From IMG/VR virus record IMGVR_UViG_3300033182_001174, positions 1-57,445 of that record: 57,445 nt of DNA. One strand, given 5' to 3'. This document shows, piece after piece, positions 31,468 to 51,800 of this stretch; the stretch's first letter is position 1; each line of letters opens with the position of its first letter. The notes beneath the pieces are model-generated. The model made no database searches, had not been told where the DNA came from, and saw nothing but the letters and a program-made list of their open reading frames with translations. Position numbers and translations under genes: made by a program. This DNA comes from a virus. Lineage: Duplodnaviria > Caudoviricetes.

Positions 31468-32130
31468 ATGGCAGGAAAATTTGTAAAAGCAGAATCTGGG
31501 AAAGATTGTGATAAAAAGCCGGGTGGTTGGGGTGAACCAATGGCTGACTATGAATACATTTGGTATGGAAATAAGGATGAAAAAACTTATCCCGAAGAAG
31601 CATGTCAACCATACTATCATGTCTCAGCACAGATTGATAATCTGAGACTCAATACTTTGATGGATGGTGATGGTAGTATCACTTTGGCAGGACCCATCAC
31701 CAGTACCAATGAAGTGACTGCTGCAGGGATCACATTGACCTCTAGAAAACCATTCGATATTCCTCACCCAACCAAAGAAGGGTATCGTCTTCGTCATGTA
31801 TGTCTAGAGGGACCAGAATCTGGTGTCTATTACAGAGGTAGATTGACAGGTAAGAATGTCATTGAACTGCCTGAGTATTGGAGGGGACTGGTTGATCCAG
31901 AGACAATCACAGTAACTCTGACGCAGATTAAAACGTCTCAAGATCTTGTGGTCGATGCTATTGAATGGGGAAGTAGAATCAAAGTCAAATCTGGAAATGG
32001 AAATGACATTGATTGTTTTTATCTTGTTCATGCAGAGAGAGCAGACGGAGAAAAACTAATCGTAGAGTATGAAGGACAATCATCTGATGATTATCCTGGT
32101 GACAATTCAATTTACAGTATCAATAAGTAG
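31468..32130 (+). CDS. Structural protein with C-terminal intramolecular-chaperone-like domain (paralog)
   Basis: KPFDIPHPTKEGYRLRHVCLEGPESGVYYRG; GGAGG RBS. Confidence 0.65.
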   Translation: MAGKFVKAESGKDCDKKPGGWGEPMADYEYIWYGNKDEKTYPEEACQPYYHVSAQIDNLRLNTLMDGDGSITLAGPITSTNEVTAAGITLTSRKPFDIPHPTKEGYRLRHVCLEGPESGVYYRGRLTGKNVIELPEYWRGLVDPETITVTLTQIKTSQDLVVDAIEWGSRIKVKSGNGNDIDCFYLVHAERADGEKLIVEYEGQSSDDYPGDNSIYSINK

Positions 32131-32140
32131 GAGATAGATC

Positions 32141-32467
32141 ATGGCAAAGCGTTTTTATTTTATTGATGATAGTGTCGCAGCAGGACAAAATACAGTTGTT
32201 GCTATTGAGAACGAATCAGGAACATTTGGTATCGGTGCAACAACAACATTAGAACCAGATAATTTAGGTGTTGGCAATTCTCTCACTGTTGGTGTAGGAG
32301 TAACAGTGCAAGGTGGTATCGTTACCGCAACTGGTGGGTTCATCAGTGGAGTTAGTACAGATGGATTGTTGGGTGTCTCAACGACACCCATTCACATCAC
32401 TTTGGAGGGCAATGTGCTCTCTTTTGCTGCAGTGGGTATTGGGTCCACCTTCTTCACTCTTGCTTGA
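32141..32467 (+). CDS. Small fibre-like structural protein
   Basis: GIVTAT/GIGST repeats shared with the tail fibre genes. Confidence 0.6.
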   Translation: MAKRFYFIDDSVAAGQNTVVAIENESGTFGIGATTTLEPDNLGVGNSLTVGVGVTVQGGIVTATGGFISGVSTDGLLGVSTTPIHITLEGNVLSFAAVGIGSTFFTLA

Positions 32468-32492
32468 CATTGAGTCCAGGACACCCTATAAT
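32464..32492 (+). promoter_or_regulatory. Sigma70-type promoter
   Basis: Perfect TTGACA-17 bp-TATAAT. Confidence 0.9.
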
Positions 32493-32515
32493 AAGCAGGT
32501 AATCAAACGAACCCC

Positions 32516-32713
32516 ATGCAAGACGAGTACCTGACCCGATGTGTCGTGGATCCTGTGTCCCGTAAGTTCTTTCTTTATTCTAATGAAGGTGAAGAACGTG
32601 TAGTAGATTGTGACACCGTGGATCAGTTCATGGCAGTGCTTGAACTGTGTCGTGACAACCTTGATGAAGACACACTTGCGTATGCCGATCCCCTGACCAA
32701 AAACGAACTTTAA
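32516..32713 (+). CDS. Conserved cyanophage hypothetical protein
   Basis: First ORF after a strong promoter. Confidence 0.75.
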   Translation: MQDEYLTRCVVDPVSRKFFLYSNEGEERVVDCDTVDQFMAVLELCRDNLDEDTLAYADPLTKNEL

Positions 32714-32770
32714 TTCCATTTTTGGGGGAAAAAAATCCCGGCAAATTTTTGACCCTATTACTTTTTTATG
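32714..32770 (+). repeat. Intergenic hairpin element, copy 2
   Basis: GGGGGAAAAAAAT-CCCGGCA-AATTTTTGACCC followed by TATTACTTTTTTATG. Confidence 0.7.
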
Positions 32771-32831
32771 AATCATTATTGGTGGTCTAACAACCCAAAC
32801 TTTTACAAAGAAATTCTAAAGTGTTACGAGT

Positions 32832-32987
32832 ATGAGACCAGAAACCCGACAATCTATGGAAATGTTATTCGCAGCGAAGTGGAATTTACCCAAAGCAGCA
32901 AAGAATGCTGGTCTGACCAACAAGGAGATGAAAATCACCTTTAACGAATATTGTGCATTTCACCCTGCTACCTATGAGACTGAATAA
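32832..32987 (+). CDS. Small putative HTH protein
   Basis: 51 aa MRPETRQSMEMLFAAKWNLPKAAKNAGLT..., Fis-type HTH pattern. Confidence 0.65.
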   Translation: MRPETRQSMEMLFAAKWNLPKAAKNAGLTNKEMKITFNEYCAFHPATYETE

Positions 32988-33264
32988 TCTTAAAATCTAC
33001 TGTCAGACCGAAGAAGACCAATCTAACGTATTTGACTTTCTCTTTTGTGAATATCAAAATGACATCAAATACTGTACTTGGGAACCTGATGGTGATGACG
33101 AGAATCCAGGAACTTGGGGAATGTTCATTGATGATTTCCCACCCGAACTTTGGGACAAAATGATCAATTATCTAGAAAGTGAAGATTCTTGGGTTCTTGA
33201 AGAGACGGTAGAAATGGCATTGGATGATGATGACAATAATGTCTACAAGGAATATTATCCTTGA
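32974..33264 (+). CDS. Acidic hypothetical protein
   Basis: ORF with ATG at 32974 overlapping the upstream gene. Confidence 0.65.
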   Translation: MRLNNLKIYCQTEEDQSNVFDFLFCEYQNDIKYCTWEPDGDDENPGTWGMFIDDFPPELWDKMINYLESEDSWVLEETVEMALDDDDNNVYKEYYP

Positions 33265-33270
33265 TTTTTT

Positions 33271-33355
33271 GGGAGTGTGGCGGAATCGGTAGACGCACCA
33301 GACTTAAAATCTGTTGATTGTAAAGATCGTGGGGGTTCAAATCCCCCCACTCCCA
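33271..33355 (+). tRNA. tRNA-Leu(UAA)
   Basis: GGGAGTG/CACTCCC acceptor stem, anticodon TAA (33305-33307), long variable arm, GGTTCAAATCC T-arm. Confidence 0.95.
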
Positions 33356-33397
33356 TTACCCCACTAAATAAAGTTGGGGTTTCTCAATGGTATTCTA

Positions 33398-33673
33398 ATG
33401 AAATACCAAATAACTACAGAATACGCCTGGTACGACACACCTGAAGGTAGTAAGGTGATTTTAACGTATTTCATACAGAATGTTCCATTTACATTCGATG
33501 AAATGCCTGAAATAGCAAGAAACCTGCCAGAAGTGGAGATGGCAGCTAACGATAATAAACGGTGGACTCCTGAAGAAATGTATAAGGCAAGTATGTACCT
33601 TATGTACGAAGAAGCACACCCTATGATGTTTGAGTTAGAAGTAGACCGACCAGAACTGTTACCTGTAGATTGA
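33398..33673 (+). CDS. Conserved hypothetical protein
   Basis: ORF after TAAATA (33365); YFIQNVPFTFDE, EEAHP motifs. Confidence 0.7.
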   Translation: MKYQITTEYAWYDTPEGSKVILTYFIQNVPFTFDEMPEIARNLPEVEMAANDNKRWTPEEMYKASMYLMYEEAHPMMFELEVDRPELLPVD

Positions 33674-33674
33674 T

Positions 33675-33748
33675 GCCAACTTAGCTCAGCTGGATAGAGC
33701 AGGGTTTTTGTAAAGCTCAGGTCATCGGTTCAAGTCCGATAGTTGGCT
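33675..33748 (+). tRNA. tRNA-Thr(UGU)
   Basis: GCCAACT/AGTTGGC acceptor stem, anticodon loop TT-TGT-AA, GGTTCAAGTCC T-arm. Confidence 0.95.
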
Positions 33749-33764
33749 TATTAAGGAGGAAAAA

Positions 33765-33935
33765 ATGGTTATAAATCTTTGGTATAATAAGTGTATGAAA
33801 GAGTGGCGATGGACACTTACAGAAACAGGTCTTATGGATCAACACTCTGGAACCAGAGAAAAACTTCGTGATGCCATGAATGATGTTGCAAACACGGTCG
33901 AATACATACTTGACAACGAGTTAAAAGAAGAGTAA
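33765..33935 (+). CDS. Small hypothetical protein
   Basis: 56 aa MVINLWYNKCMKEWRWTL... with AAGGAGG RBS (not in the ORF track). Confidence 0.75.
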   Translation: MVINLWYNKCMKEWRWTLTETGLMDQHSGTREKLRDAMNDVANTVEYILDNELKEE

Positions 33936-33938
33936 TAT
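33910..33938 (+). promoter_or_regulatory. Sigma70-type promoter
   Basis: TTGACA-17 bp-TAATAT. Confidence 0.7.
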
Positions 33939-33944
33939 ATAAAG

Positions 33945-33994
33945 GTGTGAAGGAAGTGCGAAAAGGGTGACCCTATATTGGGTTGCCCTTTTTT
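33945..33994 (+). ncRNA. Putative ~50-nt sRNA ending in an intrinsic terminator
   Basis: GTGTGAAGGAAGTG head, then AAAAGGGTGACCC-TATATT-GGGTTGCCCTTTTTT hairpin; no ORF between promoter and terminator. Confidence 0.55.
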
Positions 33995-34036
33995 CGTTTG
34001 ATAAATAATCCATAACAGAACTTATAGTGTAATAAG

Positions 34037-37000
34037 ATGGGTCTTTCCAGATTAGATAATTTTCTGAAGTCTTCGCGTGGTACTATTCTTTATGTTGATC
34101 CTAACAGTCTTGATGCGACTGATAGCATAGAAAATAGAGGAAATTCATTAACACGTCCTTTTAAAACTATTCAACGTGCCTTGGTGGAGGCAGCAAGATT
34201 TTCCTATCAGAGAGGACTGAATAATGATAGATTTGGTAAGACGACCGTCTTGCTGTATCCAGGTGACCATGTAGTTGATAATAGACCTGGATGGATACCA
34301 GATGGAGCAAATAATTTTAGATTGAGGGATGGTTCTACCTCTACAGATTTGACTCCATTTGATCTGACTTCTAATTTTGACTTACAAACAACAGATAATG
34401 AACTCTATAAGCTTAATAGTATACATGGTGGAGTAATTCTTCCCAGAGGTACATCTATTGTTGGTCTTGATCTTCGTAAAACAAAGATTAGACCAAAATA
34501 TGTTCCAGACCCAACTAATAACAATATTGAAAGGGGTGCATTATTCCGTATTACTGGTGGATGTTATCTTTGGCAGTTCTCCATGTTTGACGGAGATCCA
34601 AATGGGGTTGTTTATAAAGATTACACTGCAAACACTTTTGTTCCTAACTTTTCTCACCATAAACTCACCTGTTTTGAATATGCAGATGGTCTGAATGGTG
34701 TATCTGTCAACGATGTTTTCCAAACATACACTACGTCCAGAACGGATCTGGATATGTATTATGAGAAAGTTGGAATAGTATATGGTCAATCTTCAGGTCG
34801 TCCCATTGAACCTGATTATCCTTCAACTTCACTAGATATTCAACCTAAGATTGACGAATATCGTATTGTTGGATCAACAGGTGCTAGTGTGGGCATTTCC
34901 AGCATTAAAGCAGGAAATGGTGTCACTCCAACCACCACGATCACAGTAACTACCACTAGTGCTGTTCCTGGATTGGATGTTGATACTCCTTTCCAAGTAA
35001 GTGGAATTAGTGCATCAGGATATGACGGTAAGTTTGTTGTATCTGAAAAAGTAAGTGATACAGAGATTAAATATACAGTTCAAAATGCTCCCGCAGTAGC
35101 ACTTCCAACTGCAACTGGATCTACACTGGCACTTTCATCTGATACTGTAACTGGTGCATCTCCATACATCTTCAACATCTCTCTGAGATCTGTCTTCGGT
35201 ATGTGTGGTATGCACGCTGATGGATCTAAGGCAACTGGATTTAAATCCATGGTTGTTGCCCAGTTTACTGGTATTGGATTACAAAAAGATGATGCTGCAT
35301 TTGTAAAATATAATGAAAATACACCACCAACAGGTAATTATGATGATAATACTGTTTCTGGTAATGAAAACCTTAGTAGCAATTCAAAAGCACGATATAA
35401 ACCATCTTACAGAAACTTCCACGTAAAGGTATCAAATAATTCCTTCATTCAGGCAGTTTCGATCTTTGCTATTGGATTCTCTGAGCATTTTGTAACGGAG
35501 AATGGTGGTGACATTTCACTGACCAACTCAAACTCCAACTTTGGTGCAAATGCTCTAACCTCTGTTGGTTTTAGAACTGATGCATTTTCTCAGGATGATA
35601 TTGGATATATTACACATATTATTCCACCTAAAGAAGTTTCTTTAACAGAATCTGCTATTGAATTTGATGCGATTGACGTAACAAAAACCGACTCTGTTGC
35701 TGGTGTTGGATCAACTGGAAATCTTTATCTCCTCAATAGATCTAATGTGGATCTTCCACCAGAAAACGTAATCGAAGGTTATAGAATTGGTGCAAGATCT
35801 GAAGATAAATTAAAAGTTTTAATTAATGAAGGTGGCACTACAACAGAGCATTTTGCTCGTATTGTCATGCCTGACAATACAGAATCACCTTCTAAGAGTG
35901 CTGAAAAGTCCTTTAAGGTTAATAGAAGTATTGCTGGTATCAATAGTATTGGTCAGTATAGTGATGGCAGTAAGACAAATCAAATAACATTAACTGAGGC
36001 ACATAACTTCTTAAATGGAGAATCTGTCAGAGTCATTGGTGATACTGGACAGATTCCTGATGGATTAACTCCAAATACAATATTCTATGCGATTACAACA
36101 TCAACTGGTATTACTACCAACACAAATATTAAACTTGCAAAAACTTTAAATGATGCAATCAATGATAGTGCAATTAATATTAACGAAAAAGGTGGTGCTT
36201 TAAGAGTTGTTAGTAGAGTTTCTGATAAAAACGCAGGAGATCTTGGTCACCCAATTCAATATGATACTACTAATAGTCAGTGGTATGTTAAAGTTTCTGG
36301 GGCTTCCACTGAAAACTCAATTTATAGAACAATTGTTTCTCTGGGCACGACTGCCCTTGGATCTGCCACACCAAGAACCTTCATCAATAGAAGAACCGAT
36401 GCAAGATCTGGTTTAGATAAAACATATAGAATGAGATATGTCATTCCTTCTAATGTTGGGGGAGCTGTTGGTAGACCTCCTGTTGAAGGATTCATCATTC
36501 AAGAATCAAACACATCTATTGGTTCAACTGATGGTGAGATTCAAACTTACTTCGGTAGTGGGGATCTTGCAAACATTAATCAGCAGAGAAACTTTAGATT
36601 CATTGCTGATGCAAATTGGTCTTCTGCAACAGCTAACATTATTACAGAACTCCCACATAATCTGAAGATTGGTTCTCAAGTTGAAATTAACAATATCATC
36701 AGTACGGGTAATACCGCAGGAGTGGGCAACTCTGGATTCAATGGAATCTTTAATGTCACTGGTATTGCTAGTGCAAAACAATTTAGCGTTGGATTGACAA
36801 CGAATCCTGGAACCTTTGATACTAACACTTCCAATAGAACAACAGATTTACCATATTACAAACGTAAGAAGTATTCTGATACTTATTATGTGTATAGACT
36901 TTCTGAAGCTCAGAAGTATATCACTGGAGAGCAAGATGGTGTATACTACATTAGTGTTCTTAACGCATCAAATACACCAACAGTAGCACCATTTACTGCT

Positions 37001-39949
37001 GACAAGTATTCTCAACCTGTTAAAGAACTTTTCCCACAAATTAGTAGAGACAATCCCGTTTCTGATCCTAAAGCAACAAAATGTTTTGCTGCGTCTAATT
37101 TAATTGGTAAAGTAGATGTAGATGACAATAGAAACAGTGTAACTAGAGAAACTGCTGAAAAAATTCGTATTGATAATGGAACTGGTATCGGAATAACTGA
37201 TATCTTCTCATCTGCTGGTGCTGCACATACAATTCATACTGCATATGATCATGGATTGAATCGACTGACCAAAGTTTCTATTGTTAGTGGTGAAGTAGGT
37301 GCAGGTTATAGTGATGGCACGTATTATAATGCTAGATTGGTTTCTATTGGATCTTCAGTAACAGGAAAACATGCAACTGCAAAAGTTGTAATTGCATCCA
37401 ATCAAGTTAGTAGTGTGACCATCATGGATGGTGGTTCTGCATATGGTATTGGCAATACGATGCATGTTATTGGAGTTACAACAAATGGAACATCTGGGTA
37501 TTCTCCTGCAGTTGTAGAGGTAGATAAGATTTATGATAACGTAGGTGATGTTGTAAGAGTTGTTGGTGTAACTTCGGAATCATATAATGCATATAATCAA
37601 CTTTATAGAATTACTCACATTGGAGTTGGAACTGCAACAGAAATAACTGTTTCAGCCGCAAGTTCAATTTCTAGTGACTCTTTAGTCGGAAATATAACAG
37701 GTGTTGGTGCTACAGTATGTACTGATGCATATGTTTATCTGACCGGTGAATCTCTAGCTGTAAATACGTTCACCTCTGACATTTCTGGTGTCACTACGAT
37801 TACAACAATTAATCGTCATGGTCTTTCTGTTGATAATTCTGTAACGATTACTGGTGCTGGACAAACTCAGTATAATGGATCATTTGTTGTTACAAAAGTC
37901 AACTCACTCACATCGTTTGAAGCAAATCTTGGTGTATCAACTGTTGCACCAACAGCAACTGGAACTATTTTTGCCTTACCAGAAGGTTTATCCTCAAATG
38001 ATGGTAATATTACTGTAGAAAATGAAAACGTTGCTGGTAGAATGGTTCCTACATATGCTGGAATTACAACTACCATCTCTGCTTCTATCGCAAATGCATC
38101 TACAGATTCGGTAAGTTTGCAAAATGTTGCAGATCTTGATGTCAACATCGGAGATTATCTGATGGTTGATGGAGAATTGATGAGAGTCAAGACAACGACC
38201 ACAGGATCAAACCCAATCAAAGTTTTCCGTGGTATTCTTGGAACTAAAGCAACATCTCATGTCATCAATTCTGTTATTAAGAAAGTAAAAGTTGAACCGA
38301 TTGAACTTAGAAGACACTCTATCATTCGTGCTTCGGGTCATACGTTTGAATATGTTGGATTTGGTCCTGGCAACTACTCTACTGCATTCCCAGATAAGCA
38401 AGATCGTGCAATTTCAGTTGATGAAGAACTTTTAGCACAATCTACTAAGAGAGAGGGTGGAATCAACTTCTACACTGGAATGAATGATAAGGGTATTTCA
38501 TACTCTGGTAACAAACGTCTCAGTACCATTACTGGTAGAGAAGAGATCTTTGATACTCCAGTTCAAACAGTAGAGGGTGAAGATATTAGTCAGGTTCCAA
38601 ACTTGAATGTTGTTGAACCTGTCGAAGTTGTTGCAAGTCGTTCAATTAGAGTTGAGGGTGGACCTGACAATAAAGTTATTTCTGAATTTAATGGTCCTTT
38701 AATTGTTAATAACAAGGTTACAGTTAATTCCACCAAAGGACTTGAGTCAAATAACATTTTCCTTCAAGGTGATGCAACAGTTTCTAGAAAGTATACTGTT
38801 GGCATCGCAACTCCTGCTCTTGCAGGCAACCCAGGTGATGTTGTTTATAATGCAAACCCTGCTCAAGGTGGATGGGTTGGTTGGGTGTACACAACTGATG
38901 ATGGTTGGAAACGTTTTGGAAGTGTAAGTGTCAATTCTGGTGCAAATCAATTCATTTTTGACACTGTTGGAATTGCAACTACATCTGCTGGTGAGTGTGC
39001 ATTAAAGGTTGGATCTGGTACATCTCTTGTATGTGCAGACAACGATGGTGTCGGTATTGGTTCAACTGCAAATGGATTTAAACTTCGTGTCGTTGGTGAA
39101 TCTAGATTCAGTGGATCCATTGTCGCAACAGCATTTACTGGTGATGGAAGAGGATTGACAAATCTTGCCACTGACAGCCTTTGGAGTGGGGTGAATGCTG
39201 GACTTGGAACGGGTATCTATCAAAATGACAATCTTCAGGTAGGTATCGGAACAACCAGACCCGATCAAAATGCGGATCTAACTGTTGGTGCTGTCGGTGC
39301 ATCTGGAACCACATTGATTGTAAGATCTGAAGCAAGATTCTCTGGAATTATCACTGCTAATGATGTAACAGTCACTGGATTCAGTACAGTCGTTGGTAAT
39401 TATGATATTCAGAATTCCTCTGGTAAGATCACTGCTGGTATTGTTACTTCAACTACATTGAATGTGGGTGCTGCTGGAACCATAATCACTACAAATGTTG
39501 GATTTGGTTCTGTTGGTATTGGTTCTACTCTTCCAACTGCAATGCTTGACGTTGTTGGACATACAAAACTGAAGACCTACTCTGAAACTGTTACATCACC
39601 ATCAATCGTTGCTAATGAAGTTGAATTAGATCTGTCTGCTGCACAATCATTTACGATCACTGCAGTGAATGACATCAACGCATTTGTTCTGAAAAATCCT
39701 CCTTCAGGATCAACTTCATTTACAGTTAAGATTCTTCAAGATTCAACTGGTGGTCGTTCTGTTGGCATAGATACCTTTAAGGATGGCAGTGGAACAGCAA
39801 TTCCAGTTTATTGGCCTGGTGGTGGTGTCCTACCAATCGTTACTACAACGGCAGATAGGGCAGACATCTATTCGTTCAAGACATTTGATGGTGATGATAT
39901 TACATCCGCTGGTCTGTATGGTGTCGTAGGAGGTCAGAACTTCGCATAA
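34037..39949 (+). CDS. Long tail fibre/virion structural protein
   Basis: MGLSRLDNFLK..ILYVDP..D, PFKTIQRAL; repeated T..H.L..G..V.I.G domains; VGIGT fibre repeats; late promoter at 34002. Confidence 0.8.
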   Translation: MGLSRLDNFLKSSRGTILYVDPNSLDATDSIENRGNSLTRPFKTIQRALVEAARFSYQRGLNNDRFGKTTVLLYPGDHVVDNRPGWIPDGANNFRLRDGSTSTDLTPFDLTSNFDLQTTDNELYKLNSIHGGVILPRGTSIVGLDLRKTKIRPKYVPDPTNNNIERGALFRITGGCYLWQFSMFDGDPNGVVYKDYTANTFVPNFSHHKLTCFEYADGLNGVSVNDVFQTYTTSRTDLDMYYEKVGIVYGQSSGRPIEPDYPSTSLDIQPKIDEYRIVGSTGASVGISSIKAGNGVTPTTTITVTTTSAVPGLDVDTPFQVSGISASGYDGKFVVSEKVSDTEIKYTVQNAPAVALPTATGSTLALSSDTVTGASPYIFNISLRSVFGMCGMHADGSKATGFKSMVVAQFTGIGLQKDDAAFVKYNENTPPTGNYDDNTVSGNENLSSNSKARYKPSYRNFHVKVSNNSFIQAVSIFAIGFSEHFVTENGGDISLTNSNSNFGANALTSVGFRTDAFSQDDIGYITHIIPPKEVSLTESAIEFDAIDVTKTDSVAGVGSTGNLYLLNRSNVDLPPENVIEGYRIGARSEDKLKVLINEGGTTTEHFARIVMPDNTESPSKSAEKSFKVNRSIAGINSIGQYSDGSKTNQITLTEAHNFLNGESVRVIGDTGQIPDGLTPNTIFYAITTSTGITTNTNIKLAKTLNDAINDSAININEKGGALRVVSRVSDKNAGDLGHPIQYDTTNSQWYVKVSGASTENSIYRTIVSLGTTALGSATPRTFINRRTDARSGLDKTYRMRYVIPSNVGGAVGRPPVEGFIIQESNTSIGSTDGEIQTYFGSGDLANINQQRNFRFIADANWSSATANIITELPHNLKIGSQVEINNIISTGNTAGVGNSGFNGIFNVTGIASAKQFSVGLTTNPGTFDTNTSNRTTDLPYYKRKKYSDTYYVYRLSEAQKYITGEQDGVYYISVLNASNTPTVAPFTADKYSQPVKELFPQISRDNPVSDPKATKCFAASNLIGKVDVDDNRNSVTRETAEKIRIDNGTGIGITDIFSSAGAAHTIHTAYDHGLNRLTKVSIVSGEVGAGYSDGTYYNARLVSIGSSVTGKHATAKVVIASNQVSSVTIMDGGSAYGIGNTMHVIGVTTNGTSGYSPAVVEVDKIYDNVGDVVRVVGVTSESYNAYNQLYRITHIGVGTATEITVSAASSISSDSLVGNITGVGATVCTDAYVYLTGESLAVNTFTSDISGVTTITTINRHGLSVDNSVTITGAGQTQYNGSFVVTKVNSLTSFEANLGVSTVAPTATGTIFALPEGLSSNDGNITVENENVAGRMVPTYAGITTTISASIANASTDSVSLQNVADLDVNIGDYLMVDGELMRVKTTTTGSNPIKVFRGILGTKATSHVINSVIKKVKVEPIELRRHSIIRASGHTFEYVGFGPGNYSTAFPDKQDRAISVDEELLAQSTKREGGINFYTGMNDKGISYSGNKRLSTITGREEIFDTPVQTVEGEDISQVPNLNVVEPVEVVASRSIRVEGGPDNKVISEFNGPLIVNNKVTVNSTKGLESNNIFLQGDATVSRKYTVGIATPALAGNPGDVVYNANPAQGGWVGWVYTTDDGWKRFGSVSVNSGANQFIFDTVGIATTSAGECALKVGSGTSLVCADNDGVGIGSTANGFKLRVVGESRFSGSIVATAFTGDGRGLTNLATDSLWSGVNAGLGTGIYQNDNLQVGIGTTRPDQNADLTVGAVGASGTTLIVRSEARFSGIITANDVTVTGFSTVVGNYDIQNSSGKITAGIVTSTTLNVGAAGTIITTNVGFGSVGIGSTLPTAMLDVVGHTKLKTYSETVTSPSIVANEVELDLSAAQSFTITAVNDINAFVLKNPPSGSTSFTVKILQDSTGGRSVGIDTFKDGSGTAIPVYWPGGGVLPIVTTTADRADIYSFKTFDGDDITSAGLYGVVGGQNFA

Positions 39950-51218: not shown

Positions 51219-51800
51219 ATGTATTACACTTACGCTTATCTGCGTGAAGACGGAACTCCTTATTATATTGGAAAAGGTAGTGGGGATAGAATTAATAAAC
51301 CTCACGGTAGACCTTGCAGCAAACCACCATTAAATAGAAGAATAAAGTTAAAAACAAATCTCACCGAAAAAGAAGCATTTAGACACGAAATCTATATGAT
51401 TGCTGTTTTCGGAAGAAAAGATTTAGGAACGGGTATTCTTTACAATAAAAGTAATGGTGGCGAAGGAAACTCTGGTCTTATAATGTCGCAGGAAAGTAGA
51501 GAAAAGATGAGTAGGGTTGGTAAAGGAAAAAAGAAACCACCAGGACATGGTGAGGCAGTCAGTAGGGCAAGAAAAGGAAAACCAAGTCCTTTAAGAAACA
51601 GAACATTAACAGAAGAACATAAGAGAAAAATTGGTAACTCTCATGCCAAAACATTTCATTTTATAAACCCAGAGGGAGAACTGATAGAAATAAAGGATTT
51701 GCAAAATTACTGCAAAGATAATAAACTATCAAGAGGTTATTTTTATAAACTTATGAGAGGAGAAAGAAATGAGTATCGTGGTTGGAGATTACCGGAATGA
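51219..51800 (+). mobile_element. GIY-YIG-like homing endonuclease
   Basis: YYTYAYLREDGTPYYIGKG, LYNKSNGG. Confidence 0.85.

Follow-up and report, generated by a model that had tools for sequence, protein, structure and literature searches.

A predicted cyanophage small RNA complementary to the anticodon arm of host tRNA-Val(CAC)

A short stretch without a coding sequence in a cyanophage genome carries what looks like a gene for a small RNA (sRNA), and the question that it raises is which molecule such an RNA would pair with. The DNA analysed here (the window) comprises the 57,445 nucleotides (nt) of the IMG/VR record IMGVR_UViG_3300033182_001174 and belongs to a T4-like cyanomyovirus, of which it represents a 57-kb fragment. 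The closest isolates are the Synechococcus phages Bellamy and S-SM2, with approximately 78% nucleotide identity across the locus. The element in question extends from a promoter to a terminator at positions 33910–33996, and the initial annotation took it for a sponge of the host sRNA Yfr1. It looks like a stand-alone sRNA gene of approximately 50 nt that is free of open reading frames (ORFs) and has a functional 5′ seed—the class of element guessed initially. For the partner, however, the evidence points to the host transfer RNA (tRNA) tRNA-Val(CAC) and not to Yfr1. To judge from the sequence, the chances are about even that the element encodes an anti-tRNA sRNA against this host tRNA, serving a codon-selective shut-off of the host.

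Anatomy of the predicted sRNA gene

The element consists of the following parts:

33910–33996: promoter-to-terminator feature as a whole
33910–33915, plus strand: −35 element TTGACA, within the last codons of a 56-aa ORF
33933–33938, plus strand: −10 element TAATAT, overlapping the stop codon TAA (33933–33935) of the 56-aa ORF
33945–33994, plus strand: predicted sRNA of approximately 50 nt, its ends inferred from promoter spacing and terminator
33945–33960, plus strand: 5′ head GUGUGAAGGAAGUGCG, perfect antisense of host tRNA-Val(CAC) raw nt 22–37
33961–33994, plus strand: intrinsic terminator with a 13-bp stem including two G-U pairs, a 6-nt loop and a U-tract (RNAfold, Alifold)

The two promoter hexamers are separated by a 17-nt spacer, as the initial annotation had it, and the start that it proposed at approximately 33945 coincides with G33945, the seventh base past the −10 element. 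An RNA starting there begins with GUGUGAAGGAAGUGCG. The terminator follows the head directly: the stem strands AAAAGGGUGACCC and GGGUUGCCCUUUU enclose the loop UAUAUU (33961–33992), and the U-run reaches 33994. The plus strand holds no ORF of at least 30 aa within 33945–33996, in agreement with the predicted ORF-less transcript of approximately 50 nt. The predicted RNA folds with −21.8 to −22.0 kcal/mol and leaves its first 15 nt unpaired (RNAfold). Hence, the element combines its own promoter, a Rho-independent terminator, the lack of an ORF, and a conserved unpaired seed—the features of a trans-acting base-pairing sRNA.

The promoter match by itself is at chance level, with 14 promoter-like sites in 32000–36000 versus 12.9 ± 4.1 in shuffled sequence, and a simple terminator scan misses the hairpin at 33961–33994. 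The only Rfam matches are two tRNAs, both in 32500–35000 at E ≤ 10 and in the whole window at the gathering score. A search of the window for phage self-targets, as reverse complements of the head with up to three mismatches, yields nine matches versus 7.2 expected. A minus-strand transcript was rejected, the adjacent genes all lying on the plus strand and the reverse orientation being devoid of promoter and terminator. A leaderless GUG-UGA mini-ORF at the 5′ end was dropped as well, many members of the family described below beginning upstream at UCC.

Complementarity to host tRNA-Val(CAC)

On tRNA-Val(CAC), the head covers the complete anticodon loop with CAC and the 5′ side of the anticodon stem, and from there it extends over the junction nucleotide to three nucleotides of the D-stem 3′ strand. 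Identity with this tRNA ends after 16 nt. Of 121 Cyanobiaceae genomes, 63 contain an exact reverse complement of the head, each of them once; these genomes all have the larger, Synechococcus-type size. The match lies within tRNA-Val(CAC) at each of six inspected loci. By chance, an exact 14-mer is expected approximately 0.02 times per genome. All 63 genomes with the match share the same 27-nt anticodon arm, and the remaining 58 genomes feature no variant of the arm within three mismatches. In five small Prochlorococcus-type genomes, genes for tRNA-Val(GAC) and tRNA-Val(UAC) are present and none for tRNA-Val(CAC) was found. A second copy of the head is absent from the 121 Cyanobiaceae genomes searched.

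Within the window, the 16-mer is the longest antisense match outside the phage tRNA genes when compared with the 43 tRNAs of one host genome. The predicted net change in free energy on cofolding (net ddG) for these 43 tRNAs and Yfr1 of the same host is strongest for tRNA-Val(CAC) at −16.8, followed by tRNA-Val(GAC) at −13.3 and Yfr1 at −12.5; all others are at −4.9 or weaker. The only comparable match to another host tRNA lies elsewhere in the window: at 51690–51704, the 15 nt of ATAAAGGATTTGCAA are perfectly complementary to host tRNA-Cys(GCA), including the anticodon loop. This match is situated inside ORF 51219–51800 without promoter or terminator and is approximately at chance level for the window.

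Conservation at the locus

Relatives of the locus were chosen through a 22-mer anchor downstream of the terminator, which has exact matches in 37 IMG/VR loci; since the anchor lies beyond the terminator, this selection is independent of the element. Together with the window, Bellamy and S-SM2, this gives 40 loci (two of the IMG/VR loci copy the isolates) with 28 distinct upstream sequences. Promoter, motif and terminator—for which the initial annotation had proposed a conservation check—are all retained in 24 of the 40 loci, representing 19 distinct sequences. In a group of six near-identical loci, the L011 group, promoter and terminator are retained and the body between them differs. The module is lacking in 10 loci (8 distinct), where the ORF stops earlier and TTGACA is replaced by TTTACA or TTTGCA.

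Invariant across all 15 aligned module sequences are TTG, TAATATA, GTGTGAAGG, and the stem cores. In the terminator stem, two pairs are changed on both sides and are thus compensatory, three show one-sided wobble changes, and the loop varies freely (Alifold). The −35 element, the −10 element and the head stay invariant while adjacent codons drift. In L018 and L020 the module sits behind an unrelated upstream ORF, and L036 has a different terminator. Through this conservation the element rises above chance, unlike the promoter match by itself; the pattern, read from aligned sequences, is the signature of an sRNA gene.

The promoter-bearing forms differ in the part of tRNA-Val(CAC) to which they are complementary:

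tRNA nt 22–37: 15 distinct forms
tRNA nt 23–37: L025
tRNA nt 24–37: L005
tRNA nt 26–40: L036
tRNA nt 29–41, followed by a G-U pair and two more pairs: L028
tRNA nt 33–46: L011 group (14 nt)

Complementarity is perfect over 13–16 nt in all 19 module forms (16 nt in 15 of them) and over 14 nt in the L011 form. All 20 promoter-bearing forms therefore feature 13–16 complementary nucleotides, and each of these windows contains the anticodon; the eight module-less forms reach 5–8 nt only. The net ddG for tRNA-Val(CAC) ranges from −14.3 to −21.1 over all forms. Variation in the host as the source of the head variants was rejected because the tRNA arm is invariant in the 63 genomes. In a folding model, blocks of the L036 and L028 type can form a small hairpin, the 7-nt loop GUGUGAA of which mirrors the anticodon loop in a kissing-loop layout.

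Two side observations concern the same genomic position. A second sRNA form is present at L011:3340–3400 and in similar loci (L434, L435, L441, L499, L507, L515), with the order −10 element, GGCGAUACU, 5–8 nt, ACCCCUUCCGUGUG, terminator. Its blocks are antisense to the acceptor 3′ strand of tRNA-Val(CAC) (raw nt 61–69) and to nt 33–46, so that pairing would skip the T arm. Module-less at this position are L006, L010, L016, L022, L027, L029, L031, L032, L037 and L039, as well as L003 (SynMITS9220M01) and L004. In these relatives, the small ORF is shorter and followed directly by the late promoter. A metatranscriptome contig in which 33904 is joined to 34002 shows that the module-less form is also present in the sea.

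The wider viral family

Three scans of IMG/VR with 14–16-nt head patterns returned at least 119–120 stretches each. All counts of viral places in this section are among the matches listed. tRNA-Val genes account for only 9 of 346 raw matches. The remainder define 329 distinct places: 232 of head type, 94 of a 3′-side type (complementary to tRNA nt 32/33–46/48), and three set aside, of which two match over long stretches (27 and 48 nt) and one is unclassified. The head-type places feature 15–21 complementary nucleotides in unrelated flanks and in front of unrelated terminator hairpins. Where a −10-like hexamer is present (154 places), it mostly ends 5–6 nt before the block (80 places). Among the 222 places with sufficient flanks, an upstream promoter-like site and a downstream T-run occur together in 149, versus 3 in the reverse orientation. 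As controls, 16-mers taken from the corresponding region of tRNA-Val(GAC) and tRNA-Ala(GGC) give 17 and 35 places, respectively, which are scattered in coding sequence and have no common architecture. An anti-Shine–Dalgarno target was discarded: it accounts for AAGGAAGUG only, and neither for GUGUG nor for the 3′-side forms without AAGGAAG.

A tRNA gene lies within 3 kb of 117 of the 232 head-type places, and 35 heads are positioned directly upstream of a phage tRNA gene, which is tRNA-Gly(UCC) in 30 cases. A promoter, a head and a short hairpin directly before a phage tRNA gene—usually tRNA-Gly(UCC)—are seen in L221, L208, L212, L225, L235, L312, L313, L363, L320 and L339; given this position, release of the head as a 5′ leader by RNase P during processing of the array is possible. 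The head is found in 110 isolate records, 105 of them Synechococcus phages and none named a Prochlorococcus phage, and is carried by the cultured isolates Syn9, S-SM2 and Bellamy. In Syn9, it is located between gp134 and gp135, after a late-type ATAAATA promoter and before its own terminator.

The 3′-side type is in part associated with a known RNA. In L437:1422–1531, L443:1718–1831 and L498:1250–1359, a 14–16-nt block antisense to tRNA-Val(CAC) nt 33–48 starts 2 nt past the 3′-terminal base of an Rfam wcaG match; all three lie in phage tRNA arrays, and the wcaG model also matches in L221. A wcaG-like GUGG(U/C)G end is present within 25 nt upstream in 33 of the 94 3′-side places, and GG(C/U)GAUAC is found upstream in 25. 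Antisense blocks to this tRNA are seen in three forms: in predicted stand-alone sRNAs made of head and terminator, in the 5′ leaders of phage tRNA arrays, and attached to wcaG RNAs.

Codon use and proposed mechanism

GUG, the codon read by tRNA-Val(CAC), is the main valine codon of the host and the rarest of the phage. Its share of the valine codons is 9.9% across 43 ORFs of the phage (6.6 per 1000 codons) and 45–55% in high-GC host loci (27–47 per 1000, from crude host ORF sets). Related viral loci hold 48 genes for tRNA-Val(UAC). According to PMC11726456, tRNA supply decides whether Syn9 proteins get made in Synechococcus.

In the mechanism proposed, the sigma-70-type promoter would start a trans-acting sRNA of approximately 50 nt at about G33945, and the intrinsic terminator would stop it at about 33994. 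The 5′ 16 nt of this sRNA would pair with host tRNA-Val(CAC). The 7-nt anticodon loop is the probable starting point, from which pairing would spread into the anticodon stem by invading its 5′ strand and reach the edge of the D-stem. A tRNA paired in this way would be unable to decode, and the duplex may be cleaved, too. Host translation would be slowed more strongly than phage translation once the CAC isoacceptor is lost—a codon-selective shut-off—because GUG is the main codon of one and the rarest of the other, and because the phages often carry tRNA-Val(UAC). The anatomy of the element, its conservation and strandedness, the perfect complementarity and the codon bias are seen directly in the sequences; transcription, binding in the cell and an effect on translation are inferred from them. 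Extended to the family, the proposal reads that Synechococcus cyanophages widely encode sRNAs neutralizing the GUG-decoding tRNA-Val(CAC) through its anticodon arm, with phage tRNA-Val(UAC) covering the needs of the phage during selective shut-off; this generalization is put forward tentatively and is somewhat doubtful.

Several points weigh against such an anti-tRNA role. tRNAs are abundant, which calls for a near-stoichiometric amount of sRNA or for a catalytic nuclease step. Wobble reading of GUG by tRNA-Val(UAC) may blunt the shut-off, and the phage itself still uses GUG (105 codons in the 43 ORFs). The predicted cross-pairing with tRNA-Val(GAC) at −13.3 could amount to self-harm: 64% of the phage valine codons are GUU or GUC, for which this tRNA is needed. 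A secondary interaction with Yfr1 is possible. The energies are nearest-neighbour values that take no account of tRNA modifications, tertiary structure, or bound synthetase or EF-Tu, and the anticodon stem may open slowly. Antisense matches to the other host tRNAs stay at background level across 2.96 Mb of viral loci; targeting of a single tRNA is odd for a general strategy based on codon bias. The promoter classes differ—sigma-70-like in the window and late ATAAATA in Syn9—so timing is not uniform. Finally, contigs from four metatranscriptomes span the region with a higher summed depth over 33860–34070 than over 33818–33859, but as assemblies they cannot show transcript ends, strand or level; the higher-depth stretch is the part conserved among relatives, and the contig ends at 33932 fall on a variable base.

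Pairing with Yfr1

The initial annotation proposed a minimal decoy that mimics the 5′ end of Yfr2 and titrates host Yfr1. The ultraconserved Yfr1 motif is ACUCCUCACAC, as it stated and as given in PMC2190773; located through the 17-nt motif printed there, Yfr1 (RF01116) is recovered from 97 of the 121 Cyanobiaceae genomes, small and large alike. With two bulged A's, the head pairs with the Yfr1 linker in the form GUGUG-A-AGGA-A-GUG. This pairing has, over 28 distinct Yfr1 sequences, a duplex energy of −14.8 to −15.4 and a net ddG of −12.5 to −14.6, which places it in the top 0.24–0.27% of 114,862 window 14-mers. The Yfr1 site is single-stranded and hence kinetically accessible. Yfr2 binds and blocks Yfr1 (PMC6778093), and the host Yfr2/Cyano-1 RNAs (3–6 copies by covariance model in each of 5 host genomes) begin with GUGAGGAG or GUGUGUAGGAG approximately 6–7 nt past the −10 element. 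The likeness to the Yfr2 5′ end thus holds for the layout of the seed but not for family membership, the phage RNA giving no Rfam match to Yfr2/Cyano-1 at E ≤ 10.

Titration of Yfr1 as the main role finds no support in the comparison with the tRNA. The same pairing energy is reached by 399–464 of 5000 composition-preserving shuffles (8–9%), since any G/A-rich string pairs with the pyrimidine-rich Yfr1 linker. Two bulges are needed, whereas the match to the tRNA is perfect, and the −12.5 kcal/mol of head and Yfr1 is weaker than three of four host Yfr2–Yfr1 pairs (−16.3 to −17.7; −8.7 in the fourth). The divergent variants L028, L011 and L036 lose pairing with Yfr1 (−10.1, −5.5 and −10.2) versus −15.0, −19.7 and −21.1 with the tRNA. 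Conservation in the wider family reaches UCC upstream (120 of 232 head-type places among the matches listed) and UGCG downstream (118 of 232); as these bases match the tRNA and not Yfr1, the extension weighs against the decoy. Moreover, Yfr1 is present in small and large genomes, yet the head is in no Prochlorococcus-phage record. A Yfr1 decoy is hence considered quite improbable. The Yfr1 linker GCAC-ACUCCU-CACAC resembles the arm GCAC-UUCCUU-CACAC of tRNA-Val(CAC) (host loci L102–L131; L158–L169), which explains the partial match of the head to Yfr1.

Other explanations

The main alternative use of pairing with tRNA-Val(CAC) is anti-defence: the sRNA would shield the anticodon loop from an infection-triggered anticodon nuclease or block a tRNA-dependent defence or signal. 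This explanation rests on the same complementarity, and a single tRNA target is more in keeping with a specific defence than with a general strategy based on codons. That host anticodon nucleases deplete tRNAs in infection and that phages have counter-measures is established (PMC10264068). However, a shielded tRNA would be equally unusable in translation, and the strong host–phage bias in GUG would be left unexplained; shielding is regarded as fairly unlikely. We know of no cyanobacterial nuclease specific for tRNA-Val(CAC), and no search for one was made. A different objection denies that there is a trans-acting RNA at all: the hairpin would end upstream transcripts, the hexamers would be incidental, and the 16-mer would be a relic of tRNA recombination or an attachment (att)-like site. 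tRNA genes are classic recombination sites, promoter-like sites in the region are no commoner than by chance, and the hairpin, 26 nt past the stop codon of ORF 33765–33935, would indeed terminate that transcript. Against this stand the invariance of −35, −10 and head amid drifting codons, the recurrence of the module with unrelated upstream sequences and unrelated terminators, and the strand bias of 149 versus 3 of 222 places among the matches listed. The complementary windows also shift along the tRNA, where a relic or att core is expected as one contiguous block on one side. Neither a cloverleaf nor one long contiguous identity to a tRNA half is found; ARAGORN gives only tRNA-Leu and tRNA-Thr in the window and no tRNA at the element. 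T4-like cyanomyoviruses, in addition, are lytic. The absence of a trans-acting RNA is held to be unlikely.

Another possibility keeps the tRNA as partner but places the RNA in cis, as a T-box-like leader or attenuator that senses tRNA-Val(CAC) and gates read-through to the fibre gene or, elsewhere, to a tRNA array. The head does abut the terminator stem, and 35 of the 232 head-type places among the matches listed have head and hairpin immediately before a same-strand tRNA gene. Yet no alternative antiterminator pairing is evident in the folds, the Rfam scans return no T-box or other leader family, and the fibre gene is served by a separate, strongly conserved late-type promoter past the terminator. 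Complementarity of 16–21 nt also far exceeds a specifier codon. This cis-acting arrangement is very improbable.

Relation to known systems

In its presumed working, the predicted RNA resembles a Yfr2-type sponge, and by membership it is outside the Yfr2 family; on its sequence features, it is neither a T-box nor a tRNA relic nor a wcaG RNA. Yfr2 (Rfam Cyano-1, RF01701, which we take to be the same family) acts on Yfr1 in marine picocyanobacteria. Both are short sRNAs with a seed at the extreme 5′ end approximately 6–7 nt past the −10 element, and both seeds are G/A-rich and start with GUG(U)G. The host copies, however, carry GUGGAAACAAGG (a GGAAACA-type loop motif), whereas the phage RNA consists of head and terminator only. 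It lacks a covariance-model match, is phage-encoded, and has a tRNA as its perfect partner. It would act, like Yfr2 (PMC6778093), by sequestering another small stable RNA.

T-box leaders are likewise RNAs that recognize one tRNA through its anticodon beside an intrinsic terminator. They pair with 3 nt and with the acceptor end of a tRNA that stays folded, and act in cis via an antiterminator. The phage RNA, in contrast, would unfold the anticodon arm with 13–21 nt, and no antiterminator or Rfam match is seen; the Rfam scans and folds reveal no T-box arrangement of specifier loop, T-box sequence and competing antiterminator. The 3′ETS-leuZ of Escherichia coli is a tRNA spacer that soaks up sRNAs. 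It shares with the element the cross-talk of tRNA and sRNA by sequestration, but here the sRNA would soak up a mature tRNA.

The outcome would resemble manipulation of the tRNA pool by phages in that it favours AT-rich phage codons, and the locus lies beside tRNA-Leu(UAA) and tRNA-Thr(UGU). After T-even infection, a host tRNA-Leu is cleaved. The routes known so far work through proteins (nucleases, ligases) or through additional tRNAs, whereas here an RNA would remove an isoacceptor. Phage-encoded tRNAs are among these examples, as are host anticodon nucleases (PMC10264068). The wcaG motif (RF01761) is, like the predicted sRNA, a cyanophage non-coding RNA, often in tRNA regions. In contrast to a head plus terminator, it has a structure of three hairpins, for which a riboswitch role has been proposed (PMC2864571); the window has no covariance-model match to it. 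Cyanophage non-coding RNAs on record in PMC9964418 and PMC2864571 are CfrI, PhotoRC-II, wcaG, manA, the glnA riboswitch and abiF.

Base-pairing sRNAs have mRNAs and other sRNAs as targets, and we know of no natural RNA that is antisense to a mature tRNA at its anticodon arm. A search of the full-text literature, in which many subscription papers are not covered, revealed no sRNA of a phage or bacterium with a mature tRNA as its target. If the proposal is true, the element would be the first natural antisense RNA known against a mature tRNA, and marine cyanophages would seize translation in two ways: by adding tRNAs for AT-rich codons and by removing the isoacceptor for the host's favourite valine codon. 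This bears on how T4-like cyanophages of approximately 40% GC outdo the mRNAs of hosts of approximately 60% GC, and on why phage tRNA regions contain conserved unannotated RNAs. It would also hint at what the orphan wcaG motif does.

Neighbouring features

The genes around the element all lie on the plus strand:

33270–33356: tRNA-Leu(UAA) (ARAGORN)
33374–33673: 99-aa ORF
33675–33748, plus strand: phage tRNA-Thr(UGU) (ARAGORN), 197 nt 5′ of the predicted sRNA
33765–33935, plus strand: 56-aa ORF of unassigned function, the 3′ end of which bears the sRNA promoter
34001–34036: conserved late-type promoter and leader
34037–39949: 1970-aa fibre gene

Counterparts of the 56-aa ORF in Bellamy and S-SM2 are annotated as hypothetical protein. 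The leader of the fibre gene, GATAAATAATCCATAACAGAACTTATAGTG...AATAAGATG, features a late-type ATAAATA promoter, contains the 22-mer used as anchor, and is near-invariant across phages, whereas the genes flanking it are only approximately 70–78% identical between the same phages.

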